From assembly GCA_964477875.1 (NCBI GenBank), contig CAYZFR010000002.1:1-52115 (forward strand): a stretch of 52,115 nucleotides of DNA, read 5' to 3'. Each line of letters begins with the position of its first letter. Within the stretch, counting starts at the first letter, position 1. A model generated the notes under the pieces. That model ran no database searches. It was given only the letters and a program-made list of their open reading frames with translations, and was not told the origin of the DNA. This document shows, one piece after another, positions 2,794-27,371 of this stretch. The position numbers were made by a program, and so were the translations under genes. Source of the DNA: an uncultured Myxococcales bacterium (GTDB lineage Bacteria > Myxococcota > Kuafuiibacteriia > Kuafuiibacteriales > Kuafuiibacteriaceae).

Positions 2794-3347
2794 GTCTTCA
2801 CGTAGGCCATGATGTCCTGGAAGTCTTTGTCGGACATCGAGTCAGCGAAGTAGGGCATGACGGCCGGATAACCCCGAGCGATCTTTTTCTTGGAGTATAA
2901 GACCGACTCCTTGAAGTAACCGTCGTCGAAGGCCACGGCTTTTCCTCCCTCCAAGAGCGCCTGTTGGCCCCAGCGATTGTTCAGGTGCGGCCCGACCTTC
3001 CTCTGCCCGTTGAAACCGTGGCACCCGGCGCAGGCGTAGGTAATGTTGAAGTGACGCTCGCCTCGCTCGAGCTGAGTCATCTCCGACAGGTCGGTCTTCA
3101 GCTTCACGAGGGGCTTCAGCCCACCCTCTTTGGTCGCCACCATGGCGAGCGCCTTGTCGACGGGAATGCGGTACTTTTTGGTCTCTTCGACCTCGCCGTA
3201 GTCCGTCAGCATCTTGTGCTGTTGCTCGAGGTACGCTTCCTTGTCCGGGTATGGCTCGACCGGAAACAGGCTCACGTCCGGCACCCCGCACGCGACGATC
3301 GTGACCACAGTGGCCATGGAGAGGGTCTTGGATGGGAAGAGCTTCAT
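2784..3347 (-). CDS. Lipoprotein monohaem class-I cytochrome c, 7th gene of the ACIII operon
   Basis: One CAGCH haem motif plus a distal ..GYPAVMPYF.. Met. Resembles the cytochrome c domain of caa3 subunit II. Best start is the internal ATG at 3347 (MKLFPSKTLSMATVVTIVAC, lipobox IVAC) with AAGGA upstream. The track ORF extends to 3398. Confidence 0.7.
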   Translation of the reverse strand: MKLFPSKTLSMATVVTIVACGVPDVSLFPVEPYPDKEAYLEQQHKMLTDYGEVEETKKYRIPVDKALAMVATKEGGLKPLVKLKTDLSEMTQLERGERHFNITYACAGCHGFNGQRKVGPHLNNRWGQQALLEGGKAVAFDDGYFKESVLYSKKKIARGYPAVMPYFADSMSDKDFQDIMAYVKTYN

Positions 3348-3413: not shown

Positions 3414-4793
3414 TCAGTGGTTCTGAAAAGAAAGTGACTCCGGAAGCCGAGGGTCCTTGACCGGAACGAGATCCGCCCGTGCCGACACGAAAGCGAACGT
3501 CCCGAAGAACAGCGACACCACGCCAAACAAGCAAAGGACGTCGACGATGCTGAAGTGAGGGCTGGCATCCAAGATGGGCATCACCACGTAGTACAGATCG
3601 ACGTAGTGGATACCGAGCAGCCACACCGCACCCATGACCAGCGTGGTGGGGTTGCGCTTGATGCCTCGCGGCAAGAGGAAGAAGAAGGGAACGAAAAAGT
3701 GGCCGACCATCAAGGCCACGCCCACCTTCTCCCAGCCATTGATGCTCCGGTGGTAGTACCAGAGCGTCTCTTCGGGAATGTTCGCGTACCAAATCAGGAA
3801 GTACTGACTGAAGGCGATGTAGGTCCAGAAAACCGTGAAGCCGAAGAGGAGTTTGCCGATGTCATGGTAGTGCTCGGGGTTGATGATGCCCCGCACGTAG
3901 CCCGACCTCTGAAGCCCGATCGTCAACACCGCCAGACATCCGAAGATGGCGACCACGCAACCCGCGAAGTAGTACACCCCGAACATGGTCGAGAACCAGT
4001 GAGGGTCCATGGACTTCATCCAGTCGATGGCCGCGAAGGTAGTGGTGAAAGCGAACAAGATGACGCCCAGCGCAGAGAAGTTTTGCATCCGGCGGGTCAA
4101 ATCGTGCTCTCCACTATGGTCCTGACGGGTCGACGTCCGCCAGAAGAAAAACGCTAGAGCGCTCCATACCACCAGATAGAACACGGCTCGGAGCGTGAAG
4201 AAGCTTTCGTTCAGGTAGGGAGCCTTGTGGTCGAGGAGCGCGTCCTGACCCTCGAAATACCACCAATGGTAGTGGGTGCTGGACAGCCCAAAATAAACCG
4301 GGATGAACAGCAGCGCGAAGAGAGGGAGCGTCGCCATCACGTTCTCGGCGATGCGACGCACGACGACGCTCCAGCCGGCTCGAGCCAAGAACTGGATGAG
4401 GACGAAAAACAGGCCTCCGAGCGCCAGGCTGAGCCCGTACATGAAAGCCGTCAGATAAGAAAACGAGAAGCGCGTCAGCTCCGCATGGTGGCCTCCGTGG
4501 CCTTCGCCGCTCGGCTCGGCTCGATGGCCGCCCTCTTCTCCGTGTTCAGCTCCACCGTGCGCTGCAGCCCCGTGGTCGCCGTCAGCCTCGGCGTGCCCGT
4601 CGTCGGCCATCGCGACCGATTCGAAGCCGATCGAGGCATGCTCTTCGGCGCCGCCTTGTCCCAAGGCGAAGCCGAGAACCAGACACAGGATCCCCACACC
4701 CCAGAAGATGTATGGGTACTTGCGCCAGGGCGAATCGCTTTCGAAGCGCGTCTTGACGTCGGCGGGAATGGCCCGCAGTCGCTGATGACCCAT
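3414..4793 (-). CDS. actF: Alternative complex III subunit ActF (NrfD/PsrC-like quinol-binding membrane subunit 2)
   Basis: 459 aa polytopic protein, paralogous in style to ActC and sitting in the actABCDEF position. Carries a His/Gly/Glu-rich insert after TM1. Confidence 0.8.
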   Translation of the reverse strand: MGHQRLRAIPADVKTRFESDSPWRKYPYIFWGVGILCLVLGFALGQGGAEEHASIGFESVAMADDGHAEADGDHGAAAHGGAEHGEEGGHRAEPSGEGHGGHHAELTRFSFSYLTAFMYGLSLALGGLFFVLIQFLARAGWSVVVRRIAENVMATLPLFALLFIPVYFGLSSTHYHWWYFEGQDALLDHKAPYLNESFFTLRAVFYLVVWSALAFFFWRTSTRQDHSGEHDLTRRMQNFSALGVILFAFTTTFAAIDWMKSMDPHWFSTMFGVYYFAGCVVAIFGCLAVLTIGLQRSGYVRGIINPEHYHDIGKLLFGFTVFWTYIAFSQYFLIWYANIPEETLWYYHRSINGWEKVGVALMVGHFFVPFFFLLPRGIKRNPTTLVMGAVWLLGIHYVDLYYVVMPILDASPHFSIVDVLCLFGVVSLFFGTFAFVSARADLVPVKDPRLPESLSFQNH

Positions 4794-4796
4794 GAC

Positions 4797-5426
4797 TCAG
4801 TTCCAGCCTTTCTCTTTCGCGACGTCGTCGGGCACGGCGCTTCCGTCGGCGTAGGCCGCCCGCTGCAGCACGCGCACGTACGCCGCGATGGCCCAGCGGT
4901 CCCGCACTGGGATCTGGGCCCGATACGGCGGCATGTTGTTGTTCACACCATTCGTAATGACGTCGTAGAAGTGCCCGATGGGCATGGTCAGCAGGCGCTC
5001 GTTGTACAGCGCCGGCGGCTGAATGTTGCCACCTGAGTTCATGGACACCAAGCCCTTACCGGAGCCCGTCTTGGCGTGGCACGGCTGGCAGTAGATGTTG
5101 AAGCGCTCCTGTCCCCGGGCCAGGAACTCCTCGTTCAACTGCAACGGCTCCCCGTTCTCATCGACCTCCGGCAGGTCCTCGACCAGCTCCCCTTCGACCT
5201 TAGCGCGGTGAAGGTGGTCGTCGACCGTCAGCCCGCCGATTTTGACGGTACCTTCGACTGGCTTTCGATTCCCCATGGCCCCTGTGTATGGATTTTCTTC
5301 CTGCGGCTCGATCCGCTTCTGGAAGTCCATGTTCTGCTGGAGGTGGATCGGGGGTTCGGAAAACGTGCCGCCCTGGCACGCGGTGGCGAAAAGAGCCGCC
5401 ACCGTAATGAAACCTAGACTCTTCAT
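4797..5426 (-). CDS. actE: Alternative complex III subunit ActE (monohaem cytochrome c, probable lipoprotein)
   Basis: 209 aa. Signal peptide ends in ..FATAC. Single CQPCH motif. Position between actD and actF. Confidence 0.8.
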   Translation of the reverse strand: MKSLGFITVAALFATACQGGTFSEPPIHLQQNMDFQKRIEPQEENPYTGAMGNRKPVEGTVKIGGLTVDDHLHRAKVEGELVEDLPEVDENGEPLQLNEEFLARGQERFNIYCQPCHAKTGSGKGLVSMNSGGNIQPPALYNERLLTMPIGHFYDVITNGVNNNMPPYRAQIPVRDRWAIAAYVRVLQRAAYADGSAVPDDVAKEKGWN

Positions 5427-5428
5427 TT

Positions 5429-5958
5429 TCAGTCTTCCACCAGCTCGACGTGGCTAGCCCCCAACGACCTGAGAAACTCTGGAGTCTTCTCCGGGTCGAA
5501 CTGCGGGTCGTTGGCCTCGATCGAGATGAAGAACTTGTCGTCCGAGGCCGCCTTGAAGCGTTCGGACTCCAAGACGGGGTGATGCCAGCGTGGCAAGCGG
5601 TTCAAGAACAACATGCCCAAGACCGCCGACCCGGCCGAGAAAAGCACCATCACCTCGAAGGTGATCGGGATGAAGGCCTGCCAGGAAAAGAACGGCTTGG
5701 CTGCGATGATGATCGGGTAGTCGACGGCCGAGGTCCACCACTGGAGAAGCATTGCGCCTGACGCACCCGTGATGCCGCAGACGAACACGAAAAAAGGAAG
5801 ACGGGAGCGGGTCATGCCCATCGCGTCCTCCAGCCCATGGACCGGGAAAGGCGTGTGCGAATCCCACCTGGAGTACTTTGCGTCCCTGACCTTCTCACAG
5901 GCGTGGAAGATGGCGGGCGTGGTGTCGAACTGCGCCAGAACGCCAAAAGTCTTCTTAC

Positions 5959-5962
<4 letters not shown>
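5429..5962 (-). CDS. actD: Alternative complex III subunit ActD (DUF3341-like)
   Basis: 177 aa. Soluble N-terminal part, two central helices and the ..[10 protein letters not shown].. tail are typical of ActD. 4-nt overlap with actC. Confidence 0.75.
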
Positions 5963-7361
<1,399 letters not shown>

Positions 7362-7365
<4 letters not shown>

Positions 7366-10307
7366 CCGTTGGCCAACTCGGGGTTGGGATTGGTCAGCTT
7401 GGCGAGATACGTCGTCCGTGGGCGAATGTTGAGCTCGGCCAAAACGGCGTAGTTTCGGGGGTCCTTCTTCTTTTTGGCCACCTTCGTGTCCGGGTTGGCC
7501 ATGTCACCGAAGACGATGGCCCCCGTCGGGCAGGCCTGCTGGCAGGCAGTGACGATGGCGCCGTCCTTGATGTCGATGTCTCCTCCGCCAAACACCTTCT
7601 GGTGGATGCGGGCCTTCTGGATGCGCTGCGTGCAGTACGTGCACTTCTCCATCACGCCTCGGTAGCGCACGGTGACGTCCGGATTGCGCTGCATGGTGAT
7701 GCCCATCCCGTAGTCCTCGTCGTTGCGCACCGTGTAATGGAAGAAGTTGAAGCGCCGCACCTTGTAAGGGCAGTTGTTGGCGCAGTACCGAGTGCCGATG
7801 CAGCGGTTGTAGGCCATGTCGTTCAGGCCCTCGGGGCTGTGGGCCGAGGCACCGACCGGACACACGTTCTCGCAGGGCGCCGTCTCACACTGGCCGCAAG
7901 GCATGGGCTGGTACTTGACCTCGACCTCGCTCTCCGACTGCTCGAAGTATCGATCCACCCGGATCCAGTGCATTTCGCGTCCCTTGAGCACGTCGCTCTT
8001 GCCGACCCAAGGGATGTTGTTTTCTGCCTGGCAGGCGATGGTGCACGCGTTGCAGCCGGTGCACTGGTTGAGGTCGATGGTCATGGCCCACTGGTGCTTC
8101 CAGTCCTTGGCCCAAGGAAGGACGGGCTCTTCCCAGAGGAGCGACTCGATGTGCTCCTCCTTCATCACCTCGAACTTCTGAACGAAGTTTTCGTCTTCAG
8201 TGAAGTCGGTCTGGGTCGTACTCCGAACCAAGGGGCGGTCATGGAGTCCAGCTTCGATCTGGGCGCAGGCCAGCCGATAGCTTCCGCTGGCCCGGCTCAC
8301 CGAAGCTCCGCCGACGAAAGCGGCGCCGTCCACCGGACGGAGCCCGCTCACGTCGAAGCCGCTTCCAGCAAACTTGCCGTCGTCCGAGCGGCCGTAGCCG
8401 ATCGGGAGGACGACCACGTCATCCGCCGTGCCGGGTTGGATCCAGACCGGGAGCTCGAGGCTCTGGCCATCGACCGAAACCGACACCATCTGCTCGTTCT
8501 TTACGCCGAGCTTCTTGGCCGTCTTCGGTCCGAGGATGGCTGCGTTGTCCCAGGTCAGCTTGGTAATCGGATCCGGAAGCTCCTGCAGCCAGGGGCTGTT
8601 GGCGAAGCGGCCGTCCATCACCTTCAAGTCGCGGATGAAGACCAGCTCGGTGCCCTTCCCGGCCGCCTTCGGATAGGCAGCGACGAGACCGCTCGCGGTC
8701 AGCTCGAAGCCTTTCCGCTTCACCGGGTGCGAGTCGACGATCCCGTCGTGCAGCCAAACGGCCCAGGTCTTTTCGAAGTCGCCGTCGACGTGGGCCTTGT
8801 AAGTGGCCTTGACCTGCTCATAGCCGCTGGCGCCCTGTCCGAGAATCGCGGTCAGGATCTCGATGGGAGAAGCGGACTCGTGCAGCGGCGCGATGAGCGG
8901 CTGCTGTACGGACACGGTCCCATCTCGGGCCTGGAGGTCTCCCCAAGCCTCCAGATAGTGGCTCCTGGGCACGTGGAGCTTGGCGAGGCGCCCCGTCTCG
9001 TTCCGGAAAAGTCCCAGATGCAGGACCTGAGCCTTGCCCATCGCGTCGCCGAAGCCGGGCAGTTCGTGGGCTGGGTTGCCGCCCAGTACGACGACGTACT
9101 CGTGCTCGCCGCCCTTCATGGCCTCCACCAGATCGGCGGCCGATGACAGCTCGAGCCCGCTACGCTCGATCCACACCGCGATGCCGCCCTGTCGGGCAGG
9201 CATGGCCGCCGGCTGACCCTCGGCCTCGCCTTCCGACTCGGGGCGCGCAGGCGCAGCGCCGTAGGCCCCGAGCGCGCCGTTGATCAGATGCCCCAGGGCG
9301 TGGACCGCCGGCGGCTGCCGCTCGCCGACCACGACCAGCCCTCTGCCCTTGGCGGCCGCAAGATCCGCGGCAAGGGCCTTCACGAAGGCATCTCCGGCGT
9401 AGGCTTCGGCACCGGCCAGCTTGGGCAGATCGAAGCCTGCGGCGGCCAATCGAGCCGCCACGGCGGCCAAGACGCCGGGGACCTCGGAGGCCTTCACGGC
9501 CTTGCGATGGTCGGCGTTGGAGCCGGTCAAAGAGACGTGGGCTTCCGTCACGTAGAGCCGGTTCTTCTCTTTGGCGTCGGGATCCCGACCCTCGGCGAAA
9601 ATCCTGGAGAAGGCGACGGTGTCGCCTTCGGTCGCCATCGGATCGGCGTCGAAGACGGCCATGACCGCCGGTGCCGAGGCTATCGCCATGCTGGCGCCAG
9701 TGATGCCGGCCATGGCGGCACCGGCCCGGGCGTTCGCCTCTCCGAGGCCGTCATGTGCGTACAGCTTGGCGCCCGGCATCTCCGTCGCCAGCTGGCCGAG
9801 GAGGCGCTCCATGGTGGGCGAGGGCGTGTCGTCGATCAGCACCGCGAGGCCTCTCCCGCCCGCGTCCCGAGCCGTCTTGCCCATCGCCCGAATCGCGTCC
9901 ATGGCCGCCTTGGGCTCGACAGAGGCCCCGTCCAGGAAAGCGGTCCGGCTGCGATCCGGGTCGTAGAGCTCCAGCACCGAGGCCTGAGCCCAGGGCGGGG
10001 TCCCGCCTCGGCTCAGCGGATGGTTCGGGTTGCCGTCGACCTTCGTCGGCCGTCCGTCGTTAGAGCGCACGTTCAGCCCCAAAACGGAGCCGCCCAAGGC
10101 CACGGCGGTCGCGTAGTATTCAGGCCTGCCGGGCACTCGATCCTCGGGTCGCCGCCCGAAGGGCAGGATCTTCTCGTAGGGCTTGCGAATGCAGGCCGCG
10201 GTGTTGAGCGAAGCCATCGTAGCGCCCATCGCCGACAGAAAGGTTCGGCGGCTGGGGCTCTTGGGCTTGGCCATCATGCTCTCGTTTTTCGTGGTCATCG
10301 GTGGCAC
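7362..10307 (-). CDS. actB: Alternative complex III subunit ActB (molybdopterin-oxidoreductase-like domain fused to 4-cluster FeS domain)
   Basis: 981 aa. Tat signal [12 protein letters not shown]-terminal Cys clusters [44 protein letters not shown] and CTYCTQR..ACQQACP. Confidence 0.9.
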
Positions 10308-10951
10308 CCTGAGCAGTTCTGAGGAGGCTGGAGTTGGTTGCGGATTCGGTGAGGGTCAGAGGCCCAGTCGTATTTGGCGGCCTCTGGCGAGTCCTCCCAG
10401 CCCATTGTCGTGATCTCCGAATAGGGCCGCAGGTTCGGCTCCGGGTTACGGTGACAGCGGAGGCACCATCCCATGGAGAGCGGTGAGTGGAGGGCCACCT
10501 TCTCCATCTGGTCGATCCGCCCGTGACAGGTTTCGCAGCCCAGGCCGGCGGTCACGTGCACGTTGTGCGCGAAGTACGAGTAGTCGGGAAGCTGATGCAC
10601 CTTGATCCACGGGATCGGCTCTCCCGTCTCGTAGGACTCCCGGACCAGAGCCAGCTTCTCACTGTTCTTCTTCACGTAGGCGTGACAGTTCATGCACGTC
10701 TCCGCGGGCGGAATGGCTGCGTAGGCGGCCCGATCCACGGTGTTGTGGCAGTACCGGCAGTCGATGCCGAGTTTCCCAGCGTGGAGCTTGTGGCTGTAGG
10801 CCACCGGCTGCGTCGGCATGTAGCCGACGTCCGTGAAGTACGGGGAGAACCAATACAGCATGCCGAAAACGACCCCGACCCCGATGATCGGGACCGAGAC
10901 GGCGACGATGGTTGGGATTTTATTCGTCCACCTAGGGAAGGTATGACTCAC
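10295..10951 (-). CDS. actA: Alternative complex III subunit ActA (pentahaem cytochrome c, N-terminal TM anchor)
   Basis: Five CxxCH motifs (CRYCH, CMNCH, CETCH, CLRCH, CSGCH). I prefer the GTG start at 10951 (VSHTFPRWTNKIP + TM helix, GAAGGG upstream). Alternative starts are ATG 11023 and TTG 11035 (the track ORF). Confidence 0.85.
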   Translation of the reverse strand: MSHTFPRWTNKIPTIVAVSVPIIGVGVVFGMLYWFSPYFTDVGYMPTQPVAYSHKLHAGKLGIDCRYCHNTVDRAAYAAIPPAETCMNCHAYVKKNSEKLALVRESYETGEPIPWIKVHQLPDYSYFAHNVHVTAGLGCETCHGRIDQMEKVALHSPLSMGWCLRCHRNPEPNLRPYSEITTMGWEDSPEAAKYDWASDPHRIRNQLQPPQNCSGCHR

Positions 10952-11202
10952 GTTGTGACCCTTCTCGCTTGAATGGAGCCAGGGGGGCTCCGCCCAAAGC
11001 GTCGCGAAGCTAGCACCGGGCATCGAACCCTGCAAGCCGATGAGGACCTAGGAAATTTCGCACGGAATGCCGCGATCGCGCCCTGATGGGCACGATTCGA
11101 ACGCCTTGTCTCTGAACGGTCCCCGAGGCCGGAACTGGCCTCGAAGAGCCCGTATCCGCCCATGGGCGCACAACCTTCGACCACGGCGTCTGGTCCGGAC
11201 GC

Positions 11203-11269: not shown

Positions 11270-12436
11270 TCAGTTGGGGACCGCGCCCTCCCCCTCGCCG
11301 TCCTCGGCTGCCGCCTCCTCGGCCTCCAGCGCCGCCGCCGCCGCTGCCTCGGCCTTCTGCTTCTTGCGATACTCGTCCGCGTACTCGGCGTAGTAATCGG
11401 GCGCCGACAGCGAAGGGTAGTGCTCGAGCATGTTGTAGCCAAGCAAGGGCTGGTAGGCCCCCTGGTGGCAGGTATAGCAGTTGGCCTTGGGTGCATCCCC
11501 CGTCGGTCCCAACCGGTAGTCCGGGTAACGCTCGACGAGCGGCGCGGTGTACTCCCCGTTCACGCTCCGAAGCATCCGGATCGCGTACCAGGCCTTGGCC
11601 CGGCTGGGCGGGCTCTGGTTCCACATCGCCATCGCCCGACTGTTGTGACAATAAGTGCAGTTCACGCCGAGTGCGTTCGAGAAGTGCATCATCAGACCAT
11701 AGGTCCACTCCGTCTGCTTGATCGAAGACGCATTCCCGGTCGGCAACGGCATGTCACCGATGACGCGAATGTTGTGGTCGTCGAGCAAGTAGGTCTCGAA
11801 GACGTTCCCTGGCAACGAGGCATAGCCGACCGCTTCTTCCGACCGGTTCTGATGCGCACGGCCGCCGGCACCGCGGCTCTCCATCTCGTGTGGCGCCTCC
11901 TTGTACCAAACGTAGGAGGGGACCGGCTGCCCCCGATGGCAGGTGTAGCAAGTGGCCCCCACGTTGCCGACGTGGCTCTTCCACTCGGCGTTGATGTGCT
12001 GGGTCATCTGAATCATCCGCCGCGCGACGTGCTTCGTATATTTCCCGTCCGAGGCCAGGTTGTTGGCGTAGTGGCAGTAGTTACAGCCGACCTCGCTCTC
12101 GGGCCCCTCTTTGGGCGCCACCCACTGGGTTATGGCGAGCATCAGCCGGGTGAACTGACCGGTCGACAGGTCTCCGAGGACCTGCACGTTCTGGTAGGCC
12201 TCCGATGCGCGAGGACCATCTGGGTTCGCGGCCGCGATCGGCTCGGGGTACTCGTTGTTGGCCGCTTCGACCTCGGCCAGGGTCTCCTCGTTGACGACGA
12301 CCTCCATCGCCGCTCCGTCGGGGCCGATCTGGACCACGCTCGTCGGGGGCGCCTGGAAGTTCCAGATCAGCACCGTCACCACGACGGCGACCGCCCCTCC
12401 GAGGAGGACGTAGAACTCTTTCATCGACAGCTTCAT
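11270..12436 (-). CDS. pufC: Photosynthetic reaction-centre tetrahaem cytochrome c subunit
   Basis: 388 aa. Four CxxCH motifs (CNYCH, CYTCH, CTYCH, CYTCH). N-terminal uncleaved-type TM helix. ATGA overlap with the pufM stop. Ala/Glu-rich C-terminal tail. Confidence 0.9.
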
Positions 12437-13407
12437 TGCGGCACCTCAGTCAGCCCGGGGTCGGGGAGCACGGGATAGACGGTCGGATACTCGATGGCGA
12501 AGCCGTGCTTGACCGCCCACAGGTACCAGTTGTCGACCACCGTGCCAGTCATGAGGATCCCAATCCCGCCGGTCAGGGTCGTCAAGACGGCGAACCACCA
12601 AGCCCATCGATGAATGGACTCGAAGGTCGCGTTGAAGCCCATGCACCAGCGCCAGAACAGAGCCGAGCGTTCGGCTGCCGTCCCAGGATCCGTAATCTGA
12701 CCAATCTCTCGCTCACCGCCCAGGTGTCCGAGCGCCAGCACGGTCGCTCCGTGCATCGCGAACAGCAACGTGGAGCCGTAGAGAAAGACGATCGAGAGAG
12801 CGTGGAAGGGGTTGTAGAACAAGTTTCCGTAGCGAAGGGAGAAGGCCGCCGTCCAGTCCAGGTGGGGGAAGATGCCGAAAGGCACCGCCTCGCCCCAAGA
12901 GCCCATGGCGATGGGCCGAAAGAAACCGAGGACCAGGTAGAGCCAGATCGCGGACAAGAAAGCCCACGACACGTCGGTTCCCATTCCCAACGCCTTCGCT
13001 CGACGATACGTCCGCACCCACCAAAGGATGATGGAGGCGGTGAGAAAGAACCCGGCTATCAACCACCATCCCCCCGCGTTCATGGGAGGAAAAGCGAGTC
13101 CATTCGAAGGCGCAGGCGGCTCGAGGGCCAGCCAGGGGAGCTGGCGCACGAACTCGATCGGGTCCCAGTTCACCGATGCCCACATGTTGAGCCCAATGAT
13201 CTCGAACGCGATCAAGAAGCAGACCGCCGACGTGAGCCCGAACCAGCCCAGATAGACCTGGCCGATTTGCGCGCTCCCGATTCGTCCGAAAAGGTGACTC
13301 AGCTTCTTGATGCGCCAGCGGGGAAAGAGGCCCTCCTCGATGGGGACCGTGTCCGATGGTCCTTTCACCTGAAGTTGGGTGAATATGTTCTGGTATTCCC
13401 TCATCAT
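12433..13407 (-). CDS. pufM: Reaction-centre M subunit
   Basis: 324 aa. Starts ..[14 protein letters not shown].. and contains ..[33 protein letters not shown].. . Confidence 0.95.
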
Positions 13408-13411
13408 TGTC

Positions 13412-14236
13412 TCAACTCCAAATCGGCAGCTCGAGCCACCAGACCCACCACTCGGGCCACCCGCGTGTCCAAAGTGGACCGCTGATGATGATGCAGATGG
13501 CGCTCCAGACGCCCGCGTTCAACGCAAGGAACAAGCCCAAGCGATGGATTCCGACCGCGCCAATCGAATAGCCGATGAAGTCACGGAAAAAGTTGTCTTC
13601 ATGCTCGGCACTTCGAACCGTTTCGCCCTTCTGAGGGTTGACCGTGGACAGGATCAAGCCTCCATGCAGGGCCAAGGCGAAGGTGGTCGTGAAGAAAAAG
13701 CTGACCGCGATCATGTGGGCCGGATTGTAGTGAAAGTGTAGGTACTGGTAGCCGACGTTCGACACCCAGTCCAAGTGGGGAAAGATCCCGTAGGGGAAGC
13801 CGTGTCCCCAAGCGCCCAGCAGCAAAGGCCGAAAAATGACCAGTGTGACGTAGGCAAAGATTGCCGTCCCGAACGCGAAGGAGATGTGGTAGCCCATGCC
13901 GAGCTTCCTCGCGATCTCCGCCTGACGTAAAGCCCAGGACACAAAAGCGCCCGTGGCGCAGATGGTAACTAGCTGCCAGATACCACCCTCCTCGAGCGGA
14001 GCGAAGCCCAGGCCGTATTTGAGGGGCGGAGGTTCGACGTTCAGAATCCAGGGATTCCAAGTGGGTCCCATCGAACCGTCCCAAATGATCAAAGCCGTAC
14101 CGAGAACGGTAAAGAAGATTGTCGTGACGCCAAAGAAACCGACGTAGAACGGGCCGACCCAAAAATCGAATAGGTCACCCCCGATCAACGTCCCTCCTCG
14201 GACGCGGTATTTTTTTTCGAAGCTCAGCAAGGCCAT
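13412..14236 (-). CDS. pufL: Reaction-centre L subunit
   Basis: Starts [36 protein letters not shown] and contains ..[30 protein letters not shown] at 14236 has GAGGAG upstream. The track ORF begins 2 codons earlier at a TTG. Confidence 0.95.
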
Positions 14237-14267
14237 GACCAAGGTCTCCTCATCAGAAGCGGAGGGA

Positions 14268-19974: not shown

Positions 19975-19992
19975 TGTCAAGCATGCTTAACA
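19975..19992. promoter_or_regulatory. PpsR/CrtJ-type operator TGT-N12-ACA upstream of bchC
   Basis: TGTCAAGCATGCTTAACA, a near-perfect 18-bp palindrome 17 nt upstream of the bchC start codon. A degenerate second copy, TGTccatcttcagggACG, lies at 20000-20017, 7 bp away. Confidence 0.65.
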
Positions 19993-22012: not shown

Positions 22013-22056
22013 TGTCAGACAAACTCAACAGCCTGGAGTGTAGATTTTATCAGACA
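22013..22056. promoter_or_regulatory. Tandem PpsR/CrtJ-type operators (2 x TGT-N12-ACA, 8-bp spacer) upstream of crtE
   Basis: TGTcagacaaactcaACA (22013-22030) and TGTagattttatcagACA (22039-22056) are both perfect, separated by 8 bp. They lie in the 56-nt bchO-crtE spacer, and the second overlaps the bchO stop. Confidence 0.65.
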
Positions 22057-22868
22057 GTCTCAGCCCAACGCCGAGCCTCGCGGAGCCAGGCCACGGCTCG
22101 GGCGGGATTTTCCTCGTGGGCCAGGTGACCGGCGCCGCGCCAACGCTCCAATCGGGCTTTGGGTAAGCGCTCAGCAACGAAGGCCGACTCGTGGGGCGGG
22201 ACGGTTTTGTCGTTTCCTGCGGCCACCAGGAAGGTTGGCGTCGTGATCTCGGGGAGCACGGTCACAAGCGGTCTCAGGTCCCAGTGGGCCATCATGTTCA
22301 GGGCGCCGGCGACATGTCTGGGCTGGGTCAGAAGCCGGCGATAGGCTTCTATCCCGTCGTCGTCGAGGATGGACCCGGTCCGTCGGACCAGGCGACGGAC
22401 GCCCTTCTCGGTCACCAAGCAGCGAGCAACGAACGCTGGAACGCCCATCCTCGAGAGGCAGCGCGCGACCGAGCTCCAAAACAGCGGCCCCCAGCGCCCC
22501 CTGAACGGCAGAAAAGCTCCATTGAGGCCCACCACGACGTCCGGCGCGAGAACCCCAGCAGCGACCATCTGCAGCGAGATGGCGGCGCCCGCCGAGTGAC
22601 CGACCACGACCCTGGGCTCGAATTCGAGCGCCGCCAGCAGCGCGCCCAGCCCGGCCGCCACCGCCGGCAGACTCGGCGCCGGGCTCGGGCCGCTCCGGCC
22701 GTGACCCGGAAGATCGACGGCGATGACCTCATGAGCCTGGGCGAGCTCTGGGAGCATCCCGGACCAGGAATGGGCCGAAGCCCCCGTTCCGTGCACCAAG
22801 AGCAGGGCCGGCCCTTTACCCCGGCGCTCGACGTACCAGTCGACGCCCCCGGCTTCGACCAGGCTCAT
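22050..22868 (-). CDS. bchO: Mg-chelatase-associated alpha/beta hydrolase
   Basis: 272 aa. Contains LLLVHGTGASAHSW and a GHSAG nucleophile elbow. Position after bchD with a 4-nt overlap. Confidence 0.8.
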   Translation of the reverse strand: MSLVEAGGVDWYVERRGKGPALLLVHGTGASAHSWSGMLPELAQAHEVIAVDLPGHGRSGPSPAPSLPAVAAGLGALLAALEFEPRVVVGHSAGAAISLQMVAAGVLAPDVVVGLNGAFLPFRGRWGPLFWSSVARCLSRMGVPAFVARCLVTEKGVRRLVRRTGSILDDDGIEAYRRLLTQPRHVAGALNMMAHWDLRPLVTVLPEITTPTFLVAAGNDKTVPPHESAFVAERLPKARLERWRGAGHLAHEENPARAVAWLREARRWAETV

Positions 22869-24598
22869 GCCCTGACGTCACCGACGGCGGAGGCGATGGC
22901 ATCGGCGTCGAGCCGGGGTAGGAAGATGAGGCGGGCGCCGCAGGCTTCGGCGAGCCGCCGCGCGTCCTCCCTCGGCCGGGGTGAGGTGTCTATCAAGAGC
23001 GCGGGAATGTCTTCGACCCGCAGACCTTCGCCCTGCCGATGTGCGTCCTCCCGAGCTGCAGCGCGGTCTCGCCGGCCGTCGAGTGCGACGTTTGCTCTCG
23101 CGTCGGTCATCAAGACGACCAGAGGCATTCGCCCCCGCCGCCGGGCTTCAGCGGCCAGCTCCCGGGCCAGTCGGAGCGCATCTGCGAGAGGCGTGGGGCC
23201 TCCGCCCGCCAGGCCCGAAAGCTCGCGCTTGGCTCGAGTCAGGGAACGCGTCGGCGGGAGCACCAGCCGGGCAGCATCCCCACGAAAGGCGACGAGGGCG
23301 ACCTGGTCTCGACGCACGTAGCAATCGGCAAGAACACGCTCTACGGCTCCCTTGGCCTCGGCGAGGCGCTGGAGGGCCGAGGATCCGGAAGCGTCGACGA
23401 GGAAGATCGTCAGGGTCTCCGAGCGTTGCTGCCGCCGCTGCACCATGAGGTCTTCGAGACGGAGCTTCGGACCACAGCCCTCCTTTCGCCCGCGAAGCTC
23501 CTGCCAAGGGGCGGCCGTTCGGAGCGTCGCCACCACGTCGACCCTTCGGCCCGGTCCGGGCCGACCGGGCCGAGAGCTGAGTCGGCGCCCTCGACCCCCA
23601 CCCTGAATCTCGGCGCCCTTCTTTCCAGCGCTGCGACCTCGGGTCCGGGCGTTGAGCTCCTCCAAGAGCCCCTGCGGGAGATTCGACTGCAGAATTTCCG
23701 TCAGGACCTCGGCCTCGTCGGCGCTTGGCTTCGGTGGCTCTTGCTCCGGATCGGACTCGGGCGACTCCTCCGAGTCTGCCGTCTGAGGTTCGGGCGGGGT
23801 CTCCGGCTCGGGGGGAGACTCCTGGTTTTCGTCCTGCGCTTCGTCCTGCTCTTCCGGGGCCTCGGGCGCGGGCACTCGCGTCGCGCGAGGGATCAAGACG
23901 ACCCGCAGCGCGAAAGCGAAGTCGGACGCGCACGCCAGCCCCCGCCCATCCAGTGCGGCGCTGGCTTTGGCGACGCGGGCAGCCATCATCGGCGCTCGAA
24001 GCGAGGCGATCCCGAAGGCTTCAGCGGCCTGGCAGCACATCCGGATGAGGTCGGCCTCCAATCCGTCTTCCCCAGGAAGCGGCTCCAGCTCCGCCTCCAC
24101 ATCCGCAACGGCCAGACCCTCGAGATCCACCCGCATCGAGAGGCGCTCGACCAGATTCTCGGAGACGCCCTCCTCCCCCTCTGCGCTCTCGTCGAAGGCC
24201 AGAACCCCCAGCCGCGCCGGTGAACGGAGACTTGCCCCCTCCCGCTCGGTCGCGACCACTCCGTCGTCGAGGACGGCGCACATGTGGCCCACCAGTTCGG
24301 GGGTCATGCGCTCCGCCATTGGGATCTCGAGCACGCGCCCATCCGACTCGGCGAGAAAGCCTCGCTGAGAGACCGGCTTCCCGCTGCGGAGGGTCGCTTC
24401 GAGATCGAGCCCACCGAGCAAGCGGTCGTCCTCGATGTGGAGAGGCATCCGCCGCGCCGGCTCCGAGAGGCGCGCCCCCATCCACGCCCGCCAACGACTT
24501 CGGACCGGTCCCACACGAGCTCGAACCAACACGCCGAGCCGGGGCTGCTCGGCGAAGATCGCCGCCGCTCGAAGCGCATCCTGCCAAGTCGAAATCAC
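22865..24598 (-). CDS. bchD: Mg-chelatase subunit D
   Basis: 577 aa. Degenerate AAA+ N-domain, acidic/Pro-rich linker, and C-terminal vWA domain with MIDAS DASGS. Confidence 0.9.
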   Translation of the reverse strand: MISTWQDALRAAAIFAEQPRLGVLVRARVGPVRSRWRAWMGARLSEPARRMPLHIEDDRLLGGLDLEATLRSGKPVSQRGFLAESDGRVLEIPMAERMTPELVGHMCAVLDDGVVATEREGASLRSPARLGVLAFDESAEGEEGVSENLVERLSMRVDLEGLAVADVEAELEPLPGEDGLEADLIRMCCQAAEAFGIASLRAPMMAARVAKASAALDGRGLACASDFAFALRVVLIPRATRVPAPEAPEEQDEAQDENQESPPEPETPPEPQTADSEESPESDPEQEPPKPSADEAEVLTEILQSNLPQGLLEELNARTRGRSAGKKGAEIQGGGRGRRLSSRPGRPGPGRRVDVVATLRTAAPWQELRGRKEGCGPKLRLEDLMVQRRQQRSETLTIFLVDASGSSALQRLAEAKGAVERVLADCYVRRDQVALVAFRGDAARLVLPPTRSLTRAKRELSGLAGGGPTPLADALRLARELAAEARRRGRMPLVVLMTDARANVALDGRRDRAAAREDAHRQGEGLRVEDIPALLIDTSPRPREDARRLAEACGARLIFLPRLDADAIASAVGDVRA

Positions 24599-25620
24599 GC
24601 GCCGAGAACCTCGCCTACCGCCCGGTCGACTCGAGCCGAAGATCCACCCTCATCCAGGGGATCTCGGCGCAGCCGATGTCGCAGCGCCGAGGGCGCAACG
24701 CGCTTGAGATGATCGATCGTCGCGGTCTGGCTCGACTCCAAAGCGGCCAGGGCTCGAGCCGCGCGGACCAGGGTCAGCTCTCCGCGGAGCCCGTCCGTTC
24801 CCAGCGCGACGCACAGCTCAGCCGCAGAACGAAGCAGCTCCGGCGGTGTCGCGACTTGCTGCAGCCGTCCCCGCGCGCTCCCGAGCTGGTCGCGCAGCCC
24901 CGCCTCGCCTTCAGCCCATGTGCTCAGGAAGCCCTCCGAGTCGGCGTCGAAGGCGTCGCGCCGGCGAATGACTTCCACCCTTTCATCGATGTCGCTCGGC
25001 GTGCGGACCTCGACCGACAGACCGAAGCGATCCAGAAGCTGGGGCCGAAGCTCGCCCTCTTCGGGATTGCCGCTCCCGATGAGCACGAAGCGGGCAGGGT
25101 GGCGTACGCTCAGCCCTTCCCGCTCCACCAGATTCTCGCCCGAAGCCGCAACATCGAGCAGCAGGTCGACGATGTGGTCCTCGAGCAGGTTGACCTCATC
25201 GATATAAAGGAAGCCGCGATGGGCTCTGGCAAGCAGCCCAGGCTGAAAGGCGCGGGTGCCGCTGGTAAGGGCTCTCTCCAGATCGAGGGCGCCGACGACG
25301 CGGTCCTCGGTGGCGCCAAGGGGCAAGTCGACCACAGGCACCGGCGCCGTCTCGGCCTCGAACTCGTCACTGTCATGGAGCGGGCAGGCGGAAGGGCACA
25401 CACGCGCCTTGTTCTCGGGAGCGCAGTGGAAGGGACAGCCCGAAACTTGCTGCATCGGAGGTAAGAGGGCGGCCAGGGCACGGATCGCGGTCGATTTGCC
25501 GGTCCCGCGGTCCCCGAACAGCAGCACCCCCCCGATGCCGGGGTCGACAGCCGCCATCCGCAGGGCTTGCTTCATCTCCGACTGCGCGACGATGGCCGAG
25601 AAAGGGTAAGGAATTCGCAC
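24595..25620 (-). CDS. bchI: Mg-chelatase ATPase subunit I
   Basis: 341 aa. Starts YPFSAIVAQSEMKQAL, has Walker A GDRGTGKST and the ..GFLYIDEVNLLEDHIVD.. segment. Confidence 0.95.
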   Translation of the reverse strand: MRIPYPFSAIVAQSEMKQALRMAAVDPGIGGVLLFGDRGTGKSTAIRALAALLPPMQQVSGCPFHCAPENKARVCPSACPLHDSDEFEAETAPVPVVDLPLGATEDRVVGALDLERALTSGTRAFQPGLLARAHRGFLYIDEVNLLEDHIVDLLLDVAASGENLVEREGLSVRHPARFVLIGSGNPEEGELRPQLLDRFGLSVEVRTPSDIDERVEVIRRRDAFDADSEGFLSTWAEGEAGLRDQLGSARGRLQQVATPPELLRSAAELCVALGTDGLRGELTLVRAARALAALESSQTATIDHLKRVAPSALRHRLRRDPLDEGGSSARVDRAVGEVLGA

Positions 25621-25629
25621 GGCGGCATG

Positions 25630-26568
25630 TCAACCGAAGCGGGCTGACTTGCGCAACGCCTCATGGCCACCGTCGATGAAAGCTTCGAGCTCCGCCGCGA
25701 ACCGGGGCTGGTCGTAGTGGACCAGCGCCCCGGCGTCATAGGCCTGCACCTGCCAATTATCCTGGCCCTCAGCCCACTGCACTTCCGAATAGTCCGAGAA
25801 GTCGCCTTTGGTGCCATGGGCGAGAAAGACTGGACAGGACAGACGTTCGTAAACGGCGCGAATGTCCTTTGAGAAGAGCTTTCCCGACAGGAAGGCGTAC
25901 GGCGCGTGCTGGGCGCCCGCCTGCCGCGCCGACAACCAATCGTACTCGACCATCTCCTCGGGCACGTCCTTGGAGCCAAAGGTTCGGCGGAGAAAGTAGC
26001 GAATGGAGGCCTTCGACGTAAGCAGGTCGAAGATGCCGCGGCTCCAGAGACCGACCGAGAAGAACGCCTCGAAGCCCGGCAGCTCTCGCGTCGAGCCGGG
26101 CTCAATGAGCTTCTCGGCGCCCTTGGAGAAGCCGGTCGGCGTAATGAGGCAAAGGCTCTCCACATCGCGCGCTCGGTCGGATGCCGCACGAGCCGCGAAC
26201 TCGGCGGAGAGGGACAGGGCGACTACGTGGGTGGGGCGTCCAATCTTCGAAAGGGCGGTGTGGATCGCCTCGGTGAACAAAGCTACGTCATAGCGCCGCT
26301 TCGGCTTCGCCGAGTGTCCGAAGCCGGGAAGATCGACGGCCCAGATCTCATGACGAGGCACCAGAGCCTCGAAGAGCGGCTTCATCTCGATGCTGGAGGC
26401 GGCCGCGTTCACGCTGTGGACGAGCAGGACGGCAGGGCCGCTCCCGGCTCGGTAGCAGGCCAGCGCGGGGTCGACATCGTCCCACCATTCGATGGGCGCC
26501 TCGACGGCTGGGGGAAGAGGCGGAGCCATGGGGCACCCTGCCTCGTTTCCGAAGCAGGGGCCAGGCAC
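25630..26568 (-). CDS. Second alpha/beta-fold hydrolase, operonic with bchIDO
   Basis: 312 aa. Contains LLVHSVNAAASS and an ALSLSA nucleophile elbow, with downstream Asp/His candidates (HGTKGDF, LVHYDQP). Ends 9 nt before bchI. Confidence 0.65.
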   Translation of the reverse strand: MPGPCFGNEAGCPMAPPLPPAVEAPIEWWDDVDPALACYRAGSGPAVLLVHSVNAAASSIEMKPLFEALVPRHEIWAVDLPGFGHSAKPKRRYDVALFTEAIHTALSKIGRPTHVVALSLSAEFAARAASDRARDVESLCLITPTGFSKGAEKLIEPGSTRELPGFEAFFSVGLWSRGIFDLLTSKASIRYFLRRTFGSKDVPEEMVEYDWLSARQAGAQHAPYAFLSGKLFSKDIRAVYERLSCPVFLAHGTKGDFSDYSEVQWAEGQDNWQVQAYDAGALVHYDQPRFAAELEAFIDGGHEALRKSARFG

Positions 26569-26583
26569 TCGACCGAGACGGAC

Positions 26584-27054
26584 TCAGCCCTGCATGGGCG
26601 CGTAGCTCAAGCAGTAGCCGTTCGGGTTGACGGGTCCGCTGAACAGCTTGCATCCACCGCAAGCCGACCCGCCCTTGGGCTTGATGTACTGTGCGCAATT
26701 CTTACAGTATTTGCCCTCGTTCGGCGACTTGGCCACGTACTGCAGCGTCTTGCGCATCGACTTCGACTGGTCGTCGACCTTCGACTGGTCACAAGCGATC
26801 TCGCCGCTCTTGCTGTCCTTCTTCTCGGTGTCCGCGGCCGCGGTCTCCGCAGGCTGTGAGCCCGGCTTCTTCTCGGGCATCTTCTCTTTGGACTTTGCCT
26901 CCGCCTTCTCGGTGGCTTCTTTTTTGGCGGCCGGACCGCCGCCGCCGCCCTCGGTGCACGCTAGGAGACTAGGGGCCGCGACGAGGCCGGCGCCCAAAAT
27001 TTGGAGCGTTTGACGTCGTGAGATGATCGGGGTGATGGAGTTGTGGTCGTTCAT
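26584..27054 (-). CDS. High-potential iron-sulfur protein (HiPIP) with Tat signal, lipobox and long flexible linker
   Basis: 156 aa. Twin-arginine SRRQTL, lipobox SLLAC (Cys33), Lys/Glu/Ala/Pro-rich linker (about aa 34-95). HiPIP core is YCKNCAQY..GGCKLFSGPVNPNGYCLSYAP, matching the CxxC..GC.LF.G.VN.NGWC.SW pattern. Confidence 0.8.
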   Translation of the reverse strand: MNDHNSITPIISRRQTLQILGAGLVAAPSLLACTEGGGGGPAAKKEATEKAEAKSKEKMPEKKPGSQPAETAAADTEKKDSKSGEIACDQSKVDDQSKSMRKTLQYVAKSPNEGKYCKNCAQYIKPKGGSACGGCKLFSGPVNPNGYCLSYAPMQG

Positions 27055-27063
27055 GCTTCCTCC

Positions 27064-27083
27064 GCTGTGCTCGCTAGCACAGC
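27064..27083 (-). promoter_or_regulatory. Inverted repeat / RNA hairpin abutting the HiPIP ribosome-binding site
   Basis: GCTGTGCT-cgct-AGCACAGC, an 8-bp stem containing TGT-N10-ACA. On the minus strand GGAGGAAGC-ATG follows directly. Confidence 0.35.
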
Positions 27084-27104
27084 AGAGACGCCCGCGACAC
27101 TACT

Positions 27105-27371
27105 TCAAGCCGTTTTTTTCGTTCGTACTCTGCTTCGCAGATCGAAGAGGTGTGCTGGAAGCGAAAGGGTCAAGAAGAGGGCCGAAAAGCGCCAGTCCCA
27201 CCCAGCGAGGGCGCTCCGCAGCGCCAACATCAGGAAGGCCCCTGCTGCGAGGTTCATGACGGCGGCTCGCCCCTGGGGCCCTGGCCACAGCCACAGAAGT
27301 CCCACCGCCTCCAAGAACACCAGGACCAGGATCGCGTCGATGGCTCGCCCGCTCGCGACCCAATCTGCCAT
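27105..27371 (-). CDS. Small hypothetical membrane protein (3 predicted TM helices)
   Basis: 88 aa. Starts 3 nt after the MFS::bchP stop. Hydrophobic segments ILVLVFLEAVGLLWLW, VMNLAAGAFLMLAL and FSALFLTLSL. No family recognised. Confidence 0.45.
   Translation of the reverse strand: MADWVASGRAIDAILVLVFLEAVGLLWLWPGPQGRAAVMNLAAGAFLMLALRSALAGWDWRFSALFLTLSLPAHLFDLRSRVRTKKTA

Follow-up and report, generated by a model that had tools for sequence, protein, structure and literature searches.

The photosynthesis gene cluster (PGC) of an uncultured Myxococcales bacterium (assembly GCA_964477875.1) encodes a HiPIP (high-potential iron-sulfur protein) of the Rhodothermus marinus type, whose redox domain is preceded by a twin-arginine signal, a lipobox and a long low-complexity linker. 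The gene is located on the minus strand of contig CAYZFR010000002.1, positions 1 to 52,115 of which make up the stretch of 52,115 nucleotides referred to below as the window. The anatomy of the protein and its association with photosynthesis genes are strongly supported; its lipidation, its sorting and an electron path from alternative complex III (ACIII) through the HiPIP to PufC, the tetrahaem cytochrome of the reaction centre, are plausible predictions. We consider it probable that the protein is a lipoprotein exported by the twin-arginine translocation (Tat) system that would carry electrons from ACIII to PufC on its linker. HiPIPs that donate electrons to reaction centres and tethered periplasmic carriers are both known kinds of protein, and the window protein would be a variant, predicted from its sequence, that combines a lipid tether with a HiPIP. 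No description of a lipid-anchored, membrane-bound or tethered HiPIP was found in the literature searched, and the paper describing phototrophic Myxococcota mentions neither a HiPIP nor a cytochrome, ACIII or an alternative complex.

A HiPIP of the Rhodothermus marinus type

The open reading frame begins with ATG and encodes 156 amino acids (MNDHNSITPIISRRQTLQILGAGLVAAPSLLACTEGGGGGPAAKKEATEKAEAKSKEKMPEKKPGSQPAETAAADTEKKDSKSGEIACDQSKVDDQSKSMRKTLQYVAKSPNEGKYCKNCAQYIKPKGGSACGGCKLFSGPVNPNGYCLSYAPMQG), with cysteines at positions 33, 88, 117, 120, 132, 135 and 148; it lies exactly where a first-pass annotation of this DNA had placed it, and all sequence strings quoted there occur in its translation. 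That annotation had called the protein a HiPIP, and the family model, the alignment of ligands and the predicted fold all bear this out. The Pfam model HIPIP (PF01355) matches residues 107-152 with 29.2 bits, above the gathering cut-off of 22 (E 1.1e-6), and a precomputed match to the same family is present on 18 of 20 homologues. A phmmer search against the PDB returns the R. marinus HiPIP (3h31) as the best match (E 1.6e-14, residues 87-152), followed by 1isu, 1eyt, 3hip and 1hip. Window residues C117, C120, C135 and C148 align with Cys43, Cys46, Cys61 and Cys75 of the Thermochromatium (Tch.) tepidum HiPIP (1eyt), which we take to be the ligands of the [4Fe-4S] cluster, and with their equivalents in 3h31 and 1isu, so that none of the four cluster ligands is missing. 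In the same alignment Y123 and L137 correspond to Phe48 and Leu63 of the Tch. tepidum protein, residues discussed as electron-tunnelling bridges to haem-1 in the co-crystal of its light-harvesting 1-reaction centre complex with HiPIP (PMC7889895).

Two further cysteines set the protein apart from classical HiPIPs, in which they have no counterpart. The two additional cysteines of 3h31 are matched by C88, with which the core begins, and by C132, which precedes the third ligand by three residues (CGGC). Together with the four ligands and the arginines R13 and R14, both are invariant in an alignment of 21 sequences, and both occur in nearly all of the best 165 representatives of the subfamily. 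The extra pair of 3h31 presumably forms a disulfide, and a disulfide between C88 and C132 is predicted by homology. At the edge of the cluster a 645-residue protein with three DsbA-like thioredoxin domains is encoded; one disulfide, formed in the periplasm, is what the HiPIP core is expected to require.

Structure prediction agrees with the sequence matches. The full-length AlphaFold2 model, built with 21 sequences, has a mean pLDDT of 51.6, with about 40 in the linker, and is poor for the core; a model of the core alone reaches pLDDT 87.4 and pTM 0.68. The top 17 Foldseek matches of the core model in the PDB are all HiPIPs, the best being 3h31 (TM score 0.85/0.83, rmsd 1.9 Å). With its four cluster cysteines and the extra pair, the window gene is confirmed as a HiPIP of the R. 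marinus type. Two other identities were tried and rejected: the Iro model (NCBIfam NF041615) gives only 27.4 bits against a cut-off of 100, and the match to PioC (6xyv) has an E value of only 0.05.

The R. marinus HiPIP is the electron acceptor of ACIII and feeds a terminal oxidase, and it has been treated as a periplasmic or soluble carrier. It shares with the window protein 40 % core identity, the six-cysteine pattern and the pairing with ACIII, and differs in coming from a non-phototroph; its gene lies outside a PGC because R. marinus has none. When the 3h31 sequence was used to look for its precursor, only three relatives, 57-63 % identical, came up, and not the protein itself. The classical soluble HiPIPs (Tch. 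tepidum, Allochromatium vinosum, Rubrivivax gelatinosus, Rhodoferax fermentans) have the fold, the ligands, a Tat-type signal with RR and the bridging residues in common with the window protein, as well as PufC as the proposed acceptor. Unlike it, they end their signals in a site for signal peptidase I and lack a lipobox, a linker and the additional cysteine pair, and they score 24-27 bits on the core profile of the window family, compared with 86 for a myxobacterial copy.

At E <= 1e-3, 20 homologues were found in a set of 5.8 billion proteins and 1421 clusters in a set of 1.84 billion representatives. A scan of one genome per GTDB species, among which the species of the window is not represented, yielded 34 loci. 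Thirty-one of these are labelled as Myxococcota, as members of this phylum or with the older name Deltaproteobacteria; the other three comprise one from Rubricoccaceae and two from a single metagenome-assembled genome labelled Pseudomonadota. The core is 55-94 % identical to those of its orthologues, and the best named relative is Myxococcales LLY-WYZ-16_1 (47 %).

Conservation within photosynthesis gene clusters

In the window the HiPIP gene belongs to a co-directional string of genes on the minus strand that comprises ppsR, bchG, a pucC::bchP fusion, a small gene here called orf88, the HiPIP gene, an alpha/beta hydrolase gene, bchI, bchD, a bchO-like gene, crtE, crtF, bchC and bchXYZ, and continues with (pufBA), pufL, pufM, pufC, actA-F and the gene of a cytochrome c with a lipobox. 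The embedding of the HiPIP gene in the PGC, as originally proposed, is therefore real, and ACIII and pufC are part of the same string. Its placement between bchP and bchIDO holds with a refinement, since an ORF of 88 residues intervenes upstream and a BchO-like alpha/beta hydrolase is encoded downstream, ahead of bchI. Only 50 nt separate the HiPIP gene from orf88 and 15 nt from the hydrolase gene, and no match to a sigma-70-like promoter or a terminator was found around it on the coding strand; because of these gaps and the missing promoter and terminator matches, co-transcription with the bch genes is likely.

The layout of related clusters was surveyed by tblastn of the PGC and ACIII proteins of the window against all fetched loci, complemented by further homologue look-ups. 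The HiPIP gene is found inside a PGC in half of the genome loci (17/34) and additionally in L001-3, L041-44, L047 and L125-127, including every metagenome contig of the window layout that was examined. This survey, which extends the original proposal to other clusters, distinguishes three layouts (Table 1): the gene follows bchP and orf88 as in the window (A), follows pufC and is convergent with orf88, bchP and bchG (B), or follows bchP and orf88 and is convergent with the string from actF to pufM (C). It lies at most about 500 nt past pufC in 9 of 11 loci of layout B, and one locus has it abutting ACIII. Across genomes, pufC is followed directly by the HiPIP gene in some clusters and by ACIII in others; in the window it is ACIII. 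The HiPIP gene also stays beside orf88 through an inversion. The orf88 product is hydrophobic, and no Pfam family is recorded for it in the related contigs; its ATG overlaps the stop codon of bchP. At least 17 related loci have a match directly past bchP. Most PGC loci of myxobacteria possess a homologue in this position, as do many other PGCs with identities of 33-47 %, and the gene is called with 88-103 residues in L042, L044, L126 and L127.

The first-pass annotation had also stated that this is not a classical PGC slot, which goes too far. In Roseateles depolymerans, hip lies in the PGC and is co-regulated with the puf genes, and the gene of the Halorhodospira halophila iso-3 HiPIP lies in the PGC beside bchE and near bchI and bchJ; these PGC-encoded HiPIPs act as, or are proposed as, reaction-centre donors. 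A similar setting is found in the relative L126, with the order HiPIP-bchE-bchJ-hydrolase-bchI-bchD. A metagenome scan anchored on BchP also revealed four genes for soluble HiPIPs of the Rhodoferax type that directly adjoin bchP, in one case in the order bchP-orf88-HiPIP-hydrolase. The slot is thus not new, given these precedents; in contrast to the predicted lipoprotein of the window, the copies next to bchP that resemble those of Roseateles and Rhodoferax are soluble. The scan gave no frequency of HiPIP genes in PGCs of Myxococcota because BchP identity (59-69 %) does not separate phyla.

Table 1. Features of the HiPIP gene, its product and the surrounding cluster; positions are those of the window
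Feature	Position	Strand	Basis and remarks
HiPIP precursor gene	26584..27054	-	156 codons and stop; list of open reading frames, sequence, Pfam, 3h31 match, homologues
Signal peptide, residues 1-32	26959..27054	-	RR in all aligned homologues; motif and hydropathy computed
Twin-arginine motif S12-R-R-Q-T-L-Q18	27001-27021	-	within the n-region, residues 1-18
h-region LQILGAGLVAAPSLLA, residues 17-32		-	16 residues, mean hydropathy 1.76
Lipobox L30-L-A-C33	26956..26967	-	predicted cleavage by LspA (signal peptidase II) before Cys33, putative lipid site
Low-complexity linker, residues 34-87	26794..26955	-	54 residues; composition, low pLDDT, poor conservation
HiPIP core, residues 88-156	26587..26793	-	69 residues, net charge +6; aligned residue for residue with 3h31, 1isu and 1eyt; AlphaFold2, Foldseek
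Intercistronic spacer, 50 nt	27055..27104	-	GGAGGA ribosome-binding site 27057-27062 and 13-bp hairpin 27059-27088
orf88, conserved small membrane protein of 88 residues, motif FLTLSLPAHLFDL	27105..27371	-	tblastn matches
PucC/LhaA-like major facilitator superfamily protein fused to BchP (geranylgeranyl reductase), 836 residues	27375..29885	-	Pfam PUCC 296 bits; TIGR02023 476.5 bits
Downstream co-directional genes: hydrolase, bchI, bchD, BchO-like hydrolase	22050..26568	-	Pfam; same order in L001-L005, L009, L041, L042, L044
Alpha/beta hydrolase	25630-26568	-	begins 15 nt past the HiPIP stop codon
BchO-like alpha/beta hydrolase	22050-22868	-	beyond bchI-bchD
PpsR-type palindromes	19975-19992, 22013-22030, 22039-22056		one before bchC, two in tandem before crtE
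pufL, pufM, pufC	11270..14242	-	Pfam Photo_RC, CytoC_RC 437.5 bits; translation
PufC	11270-12436	-	388 residues
ACIII operon actABCDEF	3414..11035	-	Pfam ActD 230 bits, NrfD, Fer4, multihaem domains
ActE	4797-5426		monohaem cytochrome c, lipobox FATAC followed by QGG
Monohaem cytochrome c, CAGCH	2784..3347	-	Sec-type lipoprotein signal MKLF...TIVAC followed by G; Pfam Cytochrom_C 36.9 bits
Protein with three DsbA-like thioredoxin domains	48046-49983	-	645 residues, cluster edge
Layout A: bchG-pucC-bchP-orf88-HiPIP-(bchE, bchJ)-hydrolase-bchIDO			window, L001-5, L009, L041, L042, L044, L125-127; L007 and L008 partial
Layout B: pufL-M-C then HiPIP, convergent with orf88-bchP-bchG			L012, L013, L017, L021, L025, L026, L030, L032-34, L036, L047
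Layout C: bchP-orf88-HiPIP, convergent with actF-A-pufC-M			L006

Signal peptide, lipobox and linker

The N-terminus of the window protein carries the three elements named in the first-pass annotation, namely a twin-arginine motif, a lipobox and a flexible spacer. The Tat motif, of the S/T-R-R-x-F-L-K kind and ahead of a mildly hydrophobic h-region, was recognized by pattern (S12-RRQTLQ; family consensus [ST]RRxALQV[IL]G), and its RR is present in 21 of 21 aligned sequences. A simple regular expression finds the lipobox LLAC at residue 30, with Cys33 inside the residue range 15-35, and on manual inspection residues 23-33 fit the PROSITE-style lipoprotein pattern. The lipobox cysteine occurs in 17 of the 21 aligned homologues and is conserved at the end of the h-region while the adjoining residues vary; the four sequences without it (P0013, P0015, P0017 and P0018) also lack the linker and have AxA-like signal peptidase I sites instead. 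Lipidation at Cys33 is accordingly a prediction. All PGC-linked loci in our comparison table are of the lipobox type except L033; L047, found later, is a second soluble-type copy. In the subfamily as a whole, 128 of 150 classifiable representatives (85 %) are of the lipobox type. The idea of tethering a normally soluble carrier was thus overstated, a Tat signal with a lipobox being the majority state among HiPIPs of the R. marinus type. The closest relatives of 3h31 that were retrieved (P0166 and P0167) have both elements as well, and differ from the window protein in having about 8 residues from the lipobox cysteine to the core, compared with 54. Unusual in the window protein are its long linker and its photosynthetic context.

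It is improbable that the match at Cys33 is fortuitous and that the protein is either soluble after cleavage by signal peptidase I or held by an uncleaved Tat anchor, like the Rieske protein. The lipobox call rests on pattern rules, the N-terminus has a weak match to the transmembrane anchor of PetC (E 0.6), and soluble-type relatives exist, including some in PGCs (L033 and L047); these points favour such a non-lipidated form. Against it stand the conservation of the cysteine amid varying neighbours, its retention in 85 % of the classifiable subfamily representatives and its loss only along with the linker, and the h-region, at 16 residues and with a proline, is short for a stable transmembrane anchor. 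The soluble-type copies form a clade labelled Myxococcaceae, with genes directly after pufC in L033 (10001-10348) and L047 (7490-7735, minus strand) and a signal that ends in ...ARA followed by EA, with neither lipobox nor linker; near-identical copies lie outside any PGC in L018, L024, L027 and L031.

The linker is composed mainly of K11 A10 E9 G7 P4 T4 S4, with a net charge of 0 and a single Ile and a single Met as its only hydrophobic residues. It had been given as about 60 residues long and flexible; its flexibility stands, in that it is predicted to be disordered and varies in sequence and length, and 54 residues lie between Cys33 and Cys88. Orthologues, the two closest relatives excepted, share 2-31 % of its residues, and their own linkers are 10-91 residues long. 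The median in the subfamily is 25 residues, and 54 residues correspond to the 90th percentile. Layout-A proteins have linkers of 41-91 residues (31-33 in L007 and L008), and those of layout B have either 55-56 residues or 19-24 residues together with a Pro/Ala-rich C-terminal tail of 13-32 residues. Such tails are present on the short-linker layout-B proteins of L012, L026, L032, L034, L035 and L036 (e.g. ...APKGAPPAAAGVSPPPPVPGTVPAKGG), and they recall the C-terminal extension that fastens the Halorhodospira iso-3 HiPIP to the reaction-centre cytochrome. By a simple polymer estimate, which uses the scaling law for the end-to-end distance of a chain, 54 residues have a contour length of about 20 nm, and the ends of the relaxed chain are about 5 nm apart. 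In Tch. tepidum more than 70 Å are bridged by the redox chain that leads from HiPIP to the special pair (PMC7889895). Given these chain lengths and this span, long linkers would reach haem-1 easily and those of 19-24 residues only when nearly extended.

Sorting to the outer membrane, where the linker would be a sorting or spacing element and the protein would serve a redox task in the outer envelope or reach down to inner-membrane complexes, also appears improbable. The window protein lacks the +2 lysine of most inner-membrane lipoproteins of Myxococcus xanthus, the +2 residue across the family is mostly G, K, S, T or Q, and about half of the outer-membrane lipoproteins of Escherichia coli are reported in a preprint to have an N-terminal disordered linker, all of which would fit an outer-membrane location. 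Yet the plausible partners (ACIII, PufC and oxidases) are all inner-membrane complexes, several layout-B relatives do have a +2 lysine, and a linker of 54 residues, even at its full contour length, would be marginal for spanning the periplasm.

Proposed electron path and surrounding genes

The presumed partners of the HiPIP are encoded in the same string. PufC is a tetrahaem reaction-centre cytochrome with an N-terminal transmembrane helix and no lipobox. The ACIII operon begins 234 nt past pufC in the same orientation, and the same pufLMC-actA-F string is present in L006 (10785-19260); the quinol oxidase is therefore physically part of the puf end of the PGC. ACIII and PufC are plausible partners by gene linkage and by analogy with the ACIII of R. 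marinus and with purple bacteria, whose soluble HiPIPs donate electrons to the tetrahaem cytochrome of the reaction centre. PufC ends in an acidic tail rich in Ala and Glu, and the HiPIP core is basic; these charges suggest possible electrostatic steering.

In the electron path that we favour, the HiPIP would fold and receive its [4Fe-4S] cluster in the cytoplasm, as established HiPIPs do, and would be exported by the Tat system through its SRRQTLQ signal. Cys33 would then be diacylglycerylated, with signal peptidase II cutting after Ala32, and the redox domain would hang off the periplasmic face of the cytoplasmic membrane on the disordered linker, which appears long enough for the distal haem-1 site of PufC. 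The tether would confine the carrier to two dimensions beside its partners, where it would return electrons from ACIII to the photo-oxidised reaction centre. In the dark it would probably also feed a terminal oxidase, as the R. marinus protein does.

Close functional counterparts are the auracyanin and cytochrome c551 of Roseiflexus, membrane-tethered carriers between ACIII and a tetrahaem reaction centre. As is predicted for the window protein, they consist of an anchor, a Gly-rich or low-complexity linker and a small redox domain that swings from the quinol oxidase to the reaction centre, and Roseiflexus likewise has ACIII and a tetrahaem reaction-centre cytochrome. They differ in their cupredoxin and cytochrome c folds, in export by Sec and in much shorter linkers (about 12 residues for auracyanin, 6 for c551), so the likeness is a functional analogy only. 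Cytochrome cy of Rhodobacter is another membrane-tethered periplasmic carrier. In the Halorhodospira iso-3 HiPIP, too, an additional disordered segment keeps the protein at the reaction centre; there, however, a long C-terminal extension binds the cytochrome subunit, in place of an N-terminal lipid and linker.

Several observations weigh against a tethered carrier between ACIII and PufC. Profile models of Tat signals in Pfam and NCBIfam have no significant match to the N-terminal 46 residues, and the N-termini of orthologues match models that contain Tat signals at E 0.01-0.02 only. The +2 residue after Cys33 is Thr, and several layout-B copies have Lys at this position, as do 8 of 12 inner-membrane lipoproteins of M. 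xanthus; this residue thus does not allow one to predict whether the protein stays in the inner membrane. The layout-B linkers of 19-24 residues, with contour lengths of 7-9 nm, would scarcely extend to a haem-1 site at a height of about 7 nm, and because they are so short the rationale of reach is not general. The PGC-linked soluble clade of L033 and L047 means that tethering is not obligatory for PGC linkage. Two lipobox cytochromes c of the window, ActE and the product of the gene 66 nt downstream of actF (signal MKLFPSKTLSMATVVTIVAC followed by G; the PGC of L009 contains one homologue), could fill this role as well. Finally, about half of the genome loci have no PGC genes in the examined flanks, so the HiPIP family is not dedicated to photosynthesis; it is older than its photosynthetic use.

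The last two points would also suit a carrier that is respiratory only, linking ACIII to a terminal oxidase, with its place in the PGC owed to gene-order history. The closest solved relative is the respiratory HiPIP of R. marinus, copies without nearby PGC genes are common (e.g. L018, L022, L038 and L039), and the lipobox cytochromes c would be available as alternative donors to the reaction centre. Such a restriction to respiration is nevertheless unlikely: the linkage to the PGC survives three rearrangements, with the gene repeatedly found right after pufC, and no oxidase gene stands beside any copy examined, save a COX2-like gene inside one PGC. The neighbourhoods of the non-PGC copies in L018, L022 and L038-40 contain no respiratory complex and no informative partner. 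Moreover, both roles are compatible.

It is very improbable that the HiPIP works like PioC or Iro, supplying the reaction centre with electrons that an external donor, for instance Fe(II), provides, and takes no part in a cycle with ACIII. Its weak similarities to PioC and to the Iro model, given above, would point this way; the Iro score is far under its cut-off, the adjacent quinol oxidase is ACIII, and among the genes of the window none resembling pioAB or cyc2 and no other oxidation gene was seen.

Beyond the path from ACIII to PufC through a tethered HiPIP, one may consider, as a rather doubtful scenario, how the arrangement arose. Once Myxococcota had acquired or inherited the PGC, a soluble HiPIP of the donor type, lying beside bchP and orf88 as in Rhodoferax-like clusters, might have been replaced in the same slot by a lipoprotein HiPIP of the host, whose linker was then lengthened to 41-91 residues so as to span the way to ACIII as well as to PufC's distal haem. 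This would yield a cyclic chain of ACIII, HiPIP and reaction centre that is obligately confined to the membrane. It would have no freely diffusing carrier because ActE and the additional cytochrome c are lipobox proteins too; all three small periplasmic redox proteins of the window look lipid-anchored, judged by their signal sequences.

The remaining features of the neighbourhood concern the genes around the HiPIP gene. The Shine-Dalgarno sequence of the HiPIP gene is paired in a hairpin, UCUCUGCUGUGCU-AGCG-AGCACAGCGGAGG (27059-27088), and the 76-nt region containing it folds as RNA with -29.7 kcal/mol (z = -2.9). The core of the hairpin is the palindrome TGTGCT-AGCG-AGCACA (TGT-N10-ACA), which is conserved in L042, a relative with 83 % identity, and it could serve in the control of translation, in stabilisation of the mRNA or in the binding of a regulator. 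PpsR-type sites (TGT-N12-ACA) are absent upstream of the HiPIP gene, and their total in the window (6) is not above chance; palindromes of this type before bchC and crtE are listed in Table 1. The hydrolase next to the HiPIP is distantly BchO-like (TIGR03056 28 bits, compared with a cut-off of 172), and its position is conserved in the layout-A relatives and in the Rhodoferax-type locus L069. The PucC::BchP fusion is called as a gene of 830 residues in L042, and tblastn matches spanning both halves suggest it in about ten metagenome loci (e.g. L057, L080, L085 and L100); most relatives have two genes. According to Li et al. 2023, the bchG-lhaA-bchP operon is confined among Myxococcota to Ca. 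Kuafubacteriaceae. The window shows this arrangement in the form of the fusion, so that it probably stems from this family or a close relative of it.

The HiPIP gene, together with ACIII directly past pufC, provides a testable proposal for the whole cyclic electron-transfer chain of phototrophic Myxococcota, which to our knowledge are known from metagenomes only. HiPIPs are usually described as soluble, and a lipid anchor is predicted here for a large HiPIP subfamily to which close relatives of the R. marinus protein belong. If the HiPIP of the window is indeed tethered, it would offer a natural system for relating tether length to the kinetics of an electron shuttle and for comparison with cytochrome cy and auracyanin, and it may illustrate how hosts fit a horizontally acquired photosynthesis cluster to their own periplasmic carriers.

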